Shown here one piece after another: positions 60,701 through 63,788 of a stretch of DNA of 64,000 nt. Positions within the stretch are counted from its first letter, which is position 1. The number at the start of each line of letters is the position of its first letter. Source of the stretch: Chrysomallon squamiferum (taxonomy: Eukaryota; Animalia; Mollusca); contig CM022668.1 in NCBI GenBank assembly GCA_012295275.1, forward strand, positions 5,766,001 to 5,830,000. Reading direction: 5' to 3'. The notes under the pieces are model-generated. The model worked only from the letters and a program-made list of their open reading frames with translations, did not search any database and had not been told where the DNA came from. The position numbers were made by a program, and so were the translations under genes.

Positions 60701-63700
60701 AATCATGAGACATCTCTTATAGACCACACCACTATTCTATTACATATAGAATGCTGTGATATGCTGTTACAGATATATTATTTATATATATAATCATGTC
60801 TCTTAAAGCCTTCATAATATCTCATTACCATACTCAGTAAATTTTATAATTTATGAAATTTATACTTTTGGCATATAACCCACATTGTGTCTTCGTCTGT
60901 GTGATTAGTTTTTGTAATATACATTGTAATAAATGGGTATATTTAGCTAAGAATAGAAAAGATTACTGCCATGATCTTCTCTGTATTATCGTTTCAAGCA
61001 ATAATTATATATGGATGTGCATATAATTTTATATGTATATGTATAATTATCTGCACTCAAATTGTATTTTAAATGCACTGTATGTTAGAGGCTACACCAT
61101 AATATGTGCACTATTAAATGTACCATTTATATCATATATGTATCAAATGTACAGTTTTATAAGGTCCGTTATTACATAATATATATTCTTTTCCTGTTCT
61201 TGTTTCTGTTTTATTTAATTTTTATTTATTTATTTATTTGTTTATTTGTTTGTTTGTTTGTTTATTTATTTGTTTGTTTGTTTGTTTGTTTGTTTGTTTG
61301 TTTGTGTATTTATTTATTTATTTATTTATTATTATTTTACTTTTTTCAGTATATTTTTTATCTATATTTTTTACTAAATGAAATTAATATTGTAAACTTG
61401 CTCTCTCTCTCTCTCTCTCTCTCTCTCTCTCTCTCTCTCTCTCTCTCTCTCTCTCTCTCTCTCTCTCTCTCTCTCTCTCTCTCTCTCTCTCTCTTTCGTG
61501 ACACTTTACAGTTCAGTTAATGGGTTAATGACTGATAACTACCCAGTGTCTGACTGGTGAATGTTTGACTAACTGATTGATTGATTGACTGACTGACTGA
61601 TTGATTGACTGACTGACTGATTGATTGACTAACTGACTGATTGATTGACTGACTAACAAATTGATTGACTAACTGACTGATTGATTGAGTAACTGACTCA
61701 CTGACTCACTGACTCACTGACCTACTAACTGACTTACTAACTGAGCGAGAAGAGGACTGACTGACTATTTTAAGTGTGTAACTCACTGACTAAATGAGTT
61801 AATGAACAAATATAACAAGTGATTTAACGGACAGTTTCAATGAATGAAAATAATAAAATGAACTGTAATCTGTTTCAGAGTCTTTATACCTACTCAGCCG
61901 CCGTGGTACACGACGCCCAGACCCGGCGGCATCATTCCCCCCGGCCCACACGAAGGCAGCGTCGTGCCTGCCGACGTCGGAGGAGGAGGAGTTGGTTGGA
62001 TCGGCACAAACAACGGCATTTCCATCGGAACCTACCCGGACAAAGCCGGGGGCACTGGAGTTATCGTTCCTGGCCACCTGCCGCTTCAAGCCAGCGCCCT
62101 GACGGCCACGCCAGTACTTCCGGCGCACGGGCCCCGCGCAGGCGCAGTCATGGGAACCATCCTGGGCATCATGGCGCTGCTCAGCAGCCTCATGTGGGCG
62201 TTCTACCGGTGCAAGCCGGGCTGGTGCGCATGTCTCAAACCTCCAGCGCCTGCAGGTGTCTCTGTCATCTCTCCGCCCAGAGCCGGCACGAACTTAGGAG
62301 CGTTCCAGGCAGCCAAAGGAGCAGGAGCAGGTGCAGGTGCAGGTGCAGGTGCAGGAGCAGGAGCAGGCGCAGGATCGGCATCAGCTGGAGGAGCTGGAGG
62401 AGCCGGAGGAGGCAGCTCGTACTTTTTCACGGAGCAGGCGAAGGTGGTGTCGGGCGGCGGGAGCGGCAGTGCCGGTGGGGGTGGGGCAGGAGGGGGGCGG
62501 GGTACGACTCGTCCACCCTGAGAGCCACGGGGACGTTCACGAACGCGGGCACGTCGATCGGGACCCCGAAACCTACCCGCGCCCACCTCGGCTCCACAGC
62601 CTCGGGCACCAGCGGCTACTCCTACCAGCAGAACACGATGAGGTCAGTGGTGGACGGGTCAGTGTTCACGCCCGGCCCGGGCTCCGGACAGTCGGCCTAC
62701 CAGTACGACCGCTCGGCGGCGGACGCCGACTACGACTTGGCGTCGGGCATCAGCGGAGCCAACTACCAGAGCAACACCCTCAGCACGGCGGCAGCGGGCG
62801 GGGGAACGCTGGGCGCAGGTGGGACGCTCGGCGCAGGGGGGGCGGGGCGGGGGCGGGTACTCGTCGTCGACGATGGCGTCGTCGTACAACTACCAGGTGC
62901 AGACGGTGAGGACGGTGACGGGACAGGAGCAGATGATCGGCTACGCCGGGTCCCCGCACTTCGCCGTCACCCCCGGGGCCATGGGCGAGGAGGTGAGGGT
63001 GGACTGCTGTCTGATGACGAATGAGGGTAAAAGTGTCGTCACTGGGTCGAGTTTAGGACCCCCGCAAGTCTGGGACATGCAGGTACGTGTCAGTTCCTGC
63101 TTTTTTGTTTGTTTGTTTATTTATTATTTTTTGTTTGTTTATTGTTTTTTTTTTTAACCTATTTATTTATTTATTTGTTCGTTCGTTCGTTCGTTCGTTT
63201 CTTTATTTCTTTATTGTTTTGTTGTTTATTTTTTTCTTCATTACGTTATTATTGTTAGTGTTGTTGTTGTTATTGTTGTTATTATTATTATCGTCATTGT
63301 TGTTGTTATATTTCAAAACTGGTTAGACACAAAAGTACATACTATGAATGATTTATCTATGTAGTTGTCGAAAAAACTGTCTTGTATATTTTACGTAAAA
63401 TCATCAGTAAATCGTATTACAGAATTTCAAAATCATACTACAACTTGTACATAGACAGACAGACAGACATACAAACTATGATGAATATGCAGGAAATTCT
63501 CATTCCTAAGAACAAATGAATATAAAACTAGAATAATGTATTTAACTTACTGTTTATATCAGTTACAGAATAAAAGTTACTAATTATTTATACCGACTCA
63601 GTATAATACGTCTTTAATACTTGAACTTTCAGAGCGGGGAATTACTGAGAATAATGAAAGGGGATCAAGTAGGCTCCACTAATCTACATCTAGCGTGCAA

Positions 63701-63788: not shown

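Follow-up and report, generated by a model that had tools for sequence, protein, structure and literature searches.

A neurexin-type receptor gene with a cytoplasmic WD40 tail, a member of the lophotrochozoan PHRED-1/neurexin-1b family

Kinship with PHRED-1 and neurexin-1b

The closest described relative is PHRED-1 of the planarian Schmidtea mediterranea, for which the accessible portion of the 2017 report gives a signal peptide, LamG and EGF domains, one transmembrane (TM) helix and intracellular WD40 repeats (10.1101/131789). According to the same portion, PHRED-1 is 2536 aa long, with 6 LamG domains, 9 EGF domains and 3 WD40 repeats as counted by SMART, the C-terminus is strongly conserved in the family, and homologues occur in lophotrochozoans only, with Schistosoma, Lottia, Octopus and Capitella listed; PHRED-1 is expressed in muscle and wound-induced, and its RNAi produces thick, disordered muscle fibres and leaves neuron numbers in the pharynx unchanged (10.1101/131789). 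A second account, from 2024 and likewise available in part, describes a mollusc/brachiopod neurexin-1 paralogue, neurexin-1b, that gained C-terminal WD40 and an extended N-terminal LamG region, states that molluscs retain a separate canonical neurexin-1a, and lists Aplysia XP_012941838.1 as neurexin-1b2; its accessible text offers no analysis of function, fold or linker (PMC11405698). WD40 is not mentioned in the accessible parts of two further papers (PMC11294457, PMC10084454).

The window, by which we mean the whole 64-kb stretch of DNA analysed here, holds exons of a gene that is a member of this family. Pfam on the window exons and a PDB match identify a LamG and EGF ectodomain; the reading frame and a splice joint place a single TM and WD40 in the same polypeptide, with the WD40 of homologues exceeding the Pfam cut-off; and the window gene falls in the same 99/99 clade as Aplysia neurexin-1b2, which is also one of its direct matches (P0010). 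The architecture is thus already published, as PHRED-1 (10.1101/131789) and as neurexin-1b (PMC11405698), and what is available of these papers suffices to overturn the view of the earlier note that it was undescribed; with such accounts in print since 2017 and again in 2024, there is little new here as a discovery. The PHRED-1/neurexin-1b family is under-studied, with six papers beyond the original found to name PHRED-1, each only once or twice, and an eight-blade model of the tail domain, conserved islands in the linker, and annelid and bryozoan members provide handles on the propeller partner and the ectodomain ligand. We did not find the eight-blade fold, the linker islands or the Owenia and Watersipora members in the accessible text of 10.1101/131789 or PMC11405698, and their novelty is limited in that subscription journals, figures and supplements may hold them.

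Like PHRED-1, the window gene combines a LamG/EGF ectodomain, a single TM and intracellular WD40. Against the 6 LamG and 9 EGF domains of PHRED-1, it shows 6 ConA-type modules, 5 LNS and 2 EGF within the window, and against the 3 WD40 repeats counted by SMART, a homologue of the window gene models as a complete propeller of ~370 aa. Orthology to PHRED-1 rests on this layout, on the molluscan homologues listed in the available text of that paper, and on a match by eye of the antigen peptide printed there, which resembles the ConA-to-LNS2 junction (10.1101/131789). The restriction to lophotrochozoans is taken from the papers; our own protein searches, which brought up no planarian sequence, cannot show absence elsewhere.

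The likeness to neurexin-1b lies in the extended N-terminal LamG/ConA array together with the WD40 tail. In the portions of sequence compared by eye, Aplysia 1b1, Octopus 1b and Lingula 1b start with LNS1-EGF, followed by a ConA module as at window position 27543. The window gene corresponds to the long, 1b1-like form, whereas Aplysia 1b2 is a short form; Lingula 1b, as far as its available description goes, adds FN3 repeats, none of which were seen in the window gene.

Vertebrate alpha-neurexins (NRXN1-3; PDB 3qcw, 3r05, 3poy) share the order LNS2-LNS3-EGF-LNS4-LNS5-EGF-LNS6-stalk-TM, at about 30% identity across the ectodomain, and a single continuous alignment of the Aplysia homologue covers residues 252-1216 of neurexin-1alpha (E 1e-111). 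They are without the ConA insert, and whereas they end in a short tail with DEGSY and KEYYV, members of this family carry ~630 cytoplasmic residues ending in the propeller. The protein 4.1-binding DEGSY segment, reported missing by the earlier note, is indeed absent from the window tail, the C-terminus of the gene lying outside the window, and among 17 full-length homologues neither this segment nor a KE[W/Y]YV end was found in any.

Gene structure, homologues and the cytoplasmic tail

The features of the gene are as follows, all on the forward (+) strand.

27543..41230, +: six ConA/pentraxin-like (Laminin_G_3) modules (Pfam PF13385; homologue collinearity)
27543-27761 with 28077-28517; 29035-29670; 30451-31075 (frame break near 30910), +: ConA module exons
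31517-31720 with 32299-32739; 36097-36699; 40557-41230, +: ConA module exons
50794..52545, +: LNS2-equivalent domain exons (tblastn matches with each of the six homologues used; translation)
53150..57030, +: LNS3-EGF2-LNS4-LNS5-EGF3 exons, with a break near 53410 (Pfam; tblastn)
57649..59789, +: LNS6-equivalent exons, with breaks near 59711 and 59770 (phmmer; alignment; RNA loose ends)
61879-63082, +: exon with stalk, TM helix, Gly/Ser-rich linker and first WD40 residues (AG acceptor 61877-78, GT donor 63083-84)
61879..62140, +: Pro/Gly-rich extracellular stalk (translation; RNA contigs X1-X3)
62141..62209 (about), +: single TM helix with a small-xxx-small (GxxxGxxxG) pattern (hydropathy; family alignment)
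62210..62992, +: Gly/Ser/Ala-rich cytoplasmic linker, ~260 residues, with short conserved islands and both G-run frame breaks (62491, ~62845)
62993..63082, +: start of the WD40 propeller, first blade (75-aa segment 58-92% identical to 15 proteins; model of homologue P0016)
63633..63788, +: second WD40 exon with an open GT donor, the gene running on past the window (RNA splice joint and loose ends)
near 30910, 53410, 59711, 59770; 62491; ~62845, +: frame breaks (translations and contigs)

Within the window the domain order is six Laminin_G_3 modules, then LNS-LNS-EGF-LNS-LNS-EGF-LNS (5 LNS, 2 EGF). The PF13385 matches fall on 6 exon stretches, 5 of which exceed the curated Pfam cut-off, and the ConA exons are collinear with the N-terminal third of the Bulinus, Lymnaea and Nucella proteins; the weak match of one ConA exon to PF07953 (E 0.008, below cut-off) is a fold resemblance only. 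Each of the six modules has a conserved C-x-G-[DN]-L-x-x-C motif, and in the long forms the modules sit between EGF1 and LNS2. From the homologue gene models, the ConA array (to 41230) would be spliced to the LNS core (from 50794). In 53150..57030 Pfam reports Laminin_G_2 (E 2e-24 and 1e-24) and EGF (E 1e-5 twice), and phmmer matches the last LNS of the window best to neurexin-1alpha LNS6 and beta-neurexins (E 1.7e-11). An LNS1 or convincing signal-peptide exon was looked for across the 64-kb window and not found; in the long forms of Mactra, Ruditapes and Owenia the ConA array is preceded by a signal peptide, LNS1 and an EGF-like module, and the corresponding exons of the window gene likely lie upstream of the window. 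The idea that long forms share their LNS1-EGF1 exons with canonical neurexin was discarded, as the LNS1 of Aplysia 1a and that of 1b1 differ by eye.

The GC-rich exon 61879-63082 is a single block between its AG acceptor and GT donor, with no intron separating the TM from the WD40 start, and it joins exon 63633-63788 in phase 0. This was the reading of the earlier note, and translation and RNA contig X2/6 agree with it: the contig covers 62658-63079 and splices GT..AG, over 550 bases, into the 63633 exon. Hydropathy of the TM helix peaks at 1.92 at residues 90-108 of the translated protein P0002, and the stop-transfer segment CKPG with its Cys residues comes next, a region that is conserved across the family alignment; at the end of the exon the same frame reads VRVDCC...PPQVWDMQ. 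RNA contig X1/1 connects ~650 nt of upstream sequence with the TM and continues as far as 62492; the loose end of this contig corresponds to 59760-59789 in the LNS6 exon. Beyond 63788, the RNA runs X1 and X2 extend with loose ends of 255+ nt reading IWDFTTGKPL, as in homologues; an exon coding for this sequence was looked for in the 64-kb window and is absent from it. The gene is transcribed, the RNA contigs showing presence without tissue. The stretch is present in five public runs, and the contigs of four of these were compared with the window; they represent other individuals, 1-5% different, several with depth near 5.

The 75-residue segment at the end of the exon matches 15 proteins at 58-92% identity among 39 candidates. 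With the full WD40 region as query, scallops, Bulinus, Lymnaea, Nucella and a bryozoan, Watersipora, were matched too, and another search extended the set to an annelid, Owenia. The search for LamG+EGF+TM+WD40 proteins in molluscs and annelids that the earlier note proposed has therefore brought up gastropods, bivalves and Owenia, and a LamG/EGF-TM-Gly-rich linker-WD40 layout is common to gastropods, bivalves, the annelid and the bryozoan. A WD40-domain search of representative proteins gave 4 family-like rows among the best 150, the rest being mostly bacterial repeat proteins, and an Atlas search with the WD40 domain returned generic bacterial WD40 clusters only.

In an alignment of 21 homologues the TM is followed by CKPG/KPG, the linker and the WD40 region; the linker spans 177-320 residues in 20 of the 21, 757 in Ruditapes and ~260 in the window, and the WD40 region measures 370-382 residues in most complete members. 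In Ruditapes (P0302) ~500 extra linker residues stand just before the propeller, possibly an alternative exon. That ectodomain, TM and cytoplasmic WD40 belong to one protein, as was claimed earlier, is upheld by the frame, the splice and the fused homologues. P0003, an ENA genomic protein with 92% identity to the 75-aa query, has stalk, TM and WD40 start in a single unbroken frame, and LamG, TM and WD40 lie in one frame on Logan/JGI contigs that scarcely exceed the length of the coding sequence (P0008, 1566 aa on 5006 nt; P0011, 1802 aa on 5722 nt; P0043, 1453 aa on 4465 nt) and are likely spliced transcripts. The family WD40-start motif was recognised in 33 of the gathered proteins; in 23 of them a TM segment precedes it (22 identified by pattern and Watersipora by eye), and the remaining 10, the query among them, are of at most 449 aa with the motif within the first 160 residues. 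The Potamilus and Mactra gene models end inside the linker, without the WD40 part, and are read as truncated models.

Three gastropods each have a single protein, 3000-3159 residues long, that is collinear with the window exons from 27543 to 63791, and the Aplysia homologue P0010 (XP_012941838.1) is collinear with window 50803-63791, with 59-66% identity to the WD40-side exons. In the ectodomain tree of 18 rows, which left out scallop long forms, Owenia, Watersipora, cephalopods and invertebrate canonical neurexins, the window sequence falls among gastropod members with 99/99 support, and the source is accordingly a mollusc, probably a gastropod. More than one family gene occurs per mollusc: Mizuhopecten has two loci (P0024 / P0298) on one 468-kb contig, and Aplysia has both the long 1b1 and the short 1b2 form. 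Scallop long forms appear to bear extra LNS modules in place of the ConA array.

The WD40 fragments encoded in the window (75 and 52 aa) and its TM segment are too short and have no Pfam match by themselves; we call WD40 in the window because homologues with 58-92% identity to the fragments carry it. The WD40 profile match anticipated by the earlier note was thus not obtained with the window fragments and was obtained, above the cut-off, with homologues: in Aplysia, Sinanodonta, Candidula and P0016, where it covers just the final two or three repeats. AlphaFold2 folded the homologue P0016 poorly as a single sequence (pLDDT 47), which a 23-row alignment remedied, giving an all-beta repeat with pLDDT 87 and pTM 0.85. 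The best Foldseek matches of this model are ODA16, Tako8, TBLR1, Fbw7 and Rsa4 (TMq 0.64-0.71), and seven-bladed entries reach TMq of about 0.52. Tako8 is named eight-bladed in the Foldseek output, and the natural ODA16/DAW1, TBLR1, Fbw7 and Rsa4/Notchless we take to have eight blades as well. Because these matches exceed the seven-bladed ones, the tail domain, as modelled from P0016, is probably a complete eight-bladed propeller of ~370 aa. The likeness to eight-bladed WD40 propellers, the best structural one of the modelled tail, comes with 16-23% identity only, and is a fold match with no assignment of family or function.

The propeller lies ~260 low-complexity residues away from the membrane, and the earlier idea that it is wired directly to the TM does not hold. 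Within the linker, an island at 62506-62560 reads STLRATGTF...G...GTP and is well kept in most molluscan members; to judge from its sequence, it is a possible docking or phosphorylation site.

Possible functions of the receptor

We consider it fairly probable that the gene encodes an adhesion receptor of the PHRED-1/neurexin-1b family on muscle cells, whose predicted eight-bladed propeller would recruit intracellular partners in replacement of the PDZ tail of neurexin. The protein would be a type I single-pass receptor, with its muscle role carried over by analogy from the planarian homologue. Its LNS/EGF rod, lengthened by the six ConA-type modules, would bind a ligand presented by an adjacent cell or by the matrix, perhaps in a Ca2+-dependent manner at LNS6. 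In our alignment, onto which D137 and N238 were mapped provisionally through motif positions, the window LNS6 has D at both the D137- and the N238-equivalent. Both are named as Ca2+-site residues in the accessible text of PMC2570956. Ca2+ binding at LNS6 is plausible because the domain appears to keep acidic residues at both side-chain positions. The GxxxGxxxG pattern of the TM and the juxtamembrane Cys residues might lead to clustering and palmitoylation, and with 260 flexible residues of linker the propeller would be able to extend to the cortical cytoskeleton, where it would control how wide and how ordered muscle fibres are. Vertebrate neurexin borrows the CASK/Mint scaffold via PDZ; the predicted propeller may instead recruit intracellular partners as a built-in scaffold, replacing CASK/Mint recruitment.

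Taking this further, the family might constitute a lophotrochozoan-only adhesion system, in which a complete, highly conserved eight-bladed propeller on a 200-300-residue tether, as opposed to three loose WD repeats, builds in the scaffold of neurexin, and in which either STLRATGTF docks on the propeller as a switch or cleavage frees the propeller as a signal, linking contact to the assembly of obliquely striated muscle. Such muscle is typical of lophotrochozoans. We regard this extended proposal as possible, if doubtful.

The same protein might serve as a general adhesion receptor on several cell types, hemocytes included, in which case glycans would be the ligands of the ConA-type modules. 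The accessible part of a Biomphalaria hemocyte proteome lists a protein whose best match is the Aplysia member, at 48% similarity (PMC6281880), and expression may accordingly not be confined to muscle. The six Laminin_G_3/ConA-type modules and the several paralogues per mollusc (the two Mizuhopecten loci; Aplysia 1b1 and 1b2) would suit such a broad role. However, the Pfam name reflects the fold and not sugar binding, and the family membership of the Biomphalaria protein is presumed from the table entry only (PMC6281880), and we consider glycan-mediated general adhesion unlikely.

Still on the same protein, a role as a presynaptic organiser like neurexin-1, binding neuroligin across the synapse with the propeller as active-zone scaffold, would draw on the retained alpha-neurexin skeleton, on the LNS1-EGF1 of the Mactra, Ruditapes and Owenia long forms, and on the acidic residues of LNS6, as provisionally mapped. 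Against it, the LNS6 of the window is only 33-37% identical to those of vertebrate neurexins by alignment, DEGSY and KE[W/Y]YV are missing in 17 of 17 full-length members, molluscs separately keep canonical neurexin-1a according to the available text of PMC11405698, and PHRED-1, by the accessible portion of 10.1101/131789, is found in planarian muscle, its RNAi leaving pharynx neuron counts unchanged. We therefore judge a presynaptic function quite unlikely. The earlier note had described the ectodomain as synaptic-type; its neurexin-like nature stands, and the synaptic role is weakened, the only functional study found, seen in part, concerning muscle (10.1101/131789).

Frame breaks in the assembly

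In the assembled sequence the frame of the tail closes at TGA 62519-62521. RNA contig X3/9 (62451-62627) has one extra G at 62491 and contig X2/6 has two extra bases at 62845; X5 contig 11, which covers 62386-63092, includes intron sequence and comes from a run whose type is not on record, has -2 at 62492 and a net -10 at 62792-62845. Either set of indels, applied by script, gives 0 stops from 61880 to 63788, and mending only the first break leaves 5 stops. The earlier note had treated the two G-run frameshifts as errors, and the contigs agree: the TGA at 62519 very likely reflects an error of assembly, because the contig indels at both G-run breaks yield a stop-free frame. The alignment of RNA over 62150-63788 that it called for reveals the splice and restores the frame, with continuity from TM to WD40 pieced from several contigs, none of which spans both, and with 62628-62657 covered by X5 only.

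The gene model has six frame breaks in total, all at G or C runs, a pattern that points to an unpolished assembly. Those near 30910, 53410 and 59711 are evident from the translations, and at the C-run break near 59770 the RNA loose ends carry one more C; the contigs cover three of the six, and all three are corrected in frame. That the breaks are genuine, so that the locus is either a degenerate copy or a neurexin whose short tail stops at TGA 62519, with the WD40 exons belonging to another gene next to it, might be argued from the number of breaks within one gene model, from contigs that derive from other individuals and from the want of a single contig across TM and WD40, but is very improbable given that every break sits at a G or C run with the three covered ones corrected in frame, that the STLRATGTF motif, conserved in the family, follows the first linker break, and that TM and WD40 start share an exon here and are fused in homologues. 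The corrected model is useful in itself, as six homopolymer breaks would make the gene pass for a pseudogene or for a neurexin cut short.

Upstream of the first ConA exon, 1-4945 and 6166-10531 form a duplication at an offset of ~5.6-6.2 kb, in three pieces of 91%, 90% and 95% identity over 937, 1217 and 2329 bases; this is either a tandem segmental copy or an uncollapsed haplotype. At 21877-22378 lies a tandem repeat with a period of ~140-150 bp and 86-89% identity, non-coding as far as seen.
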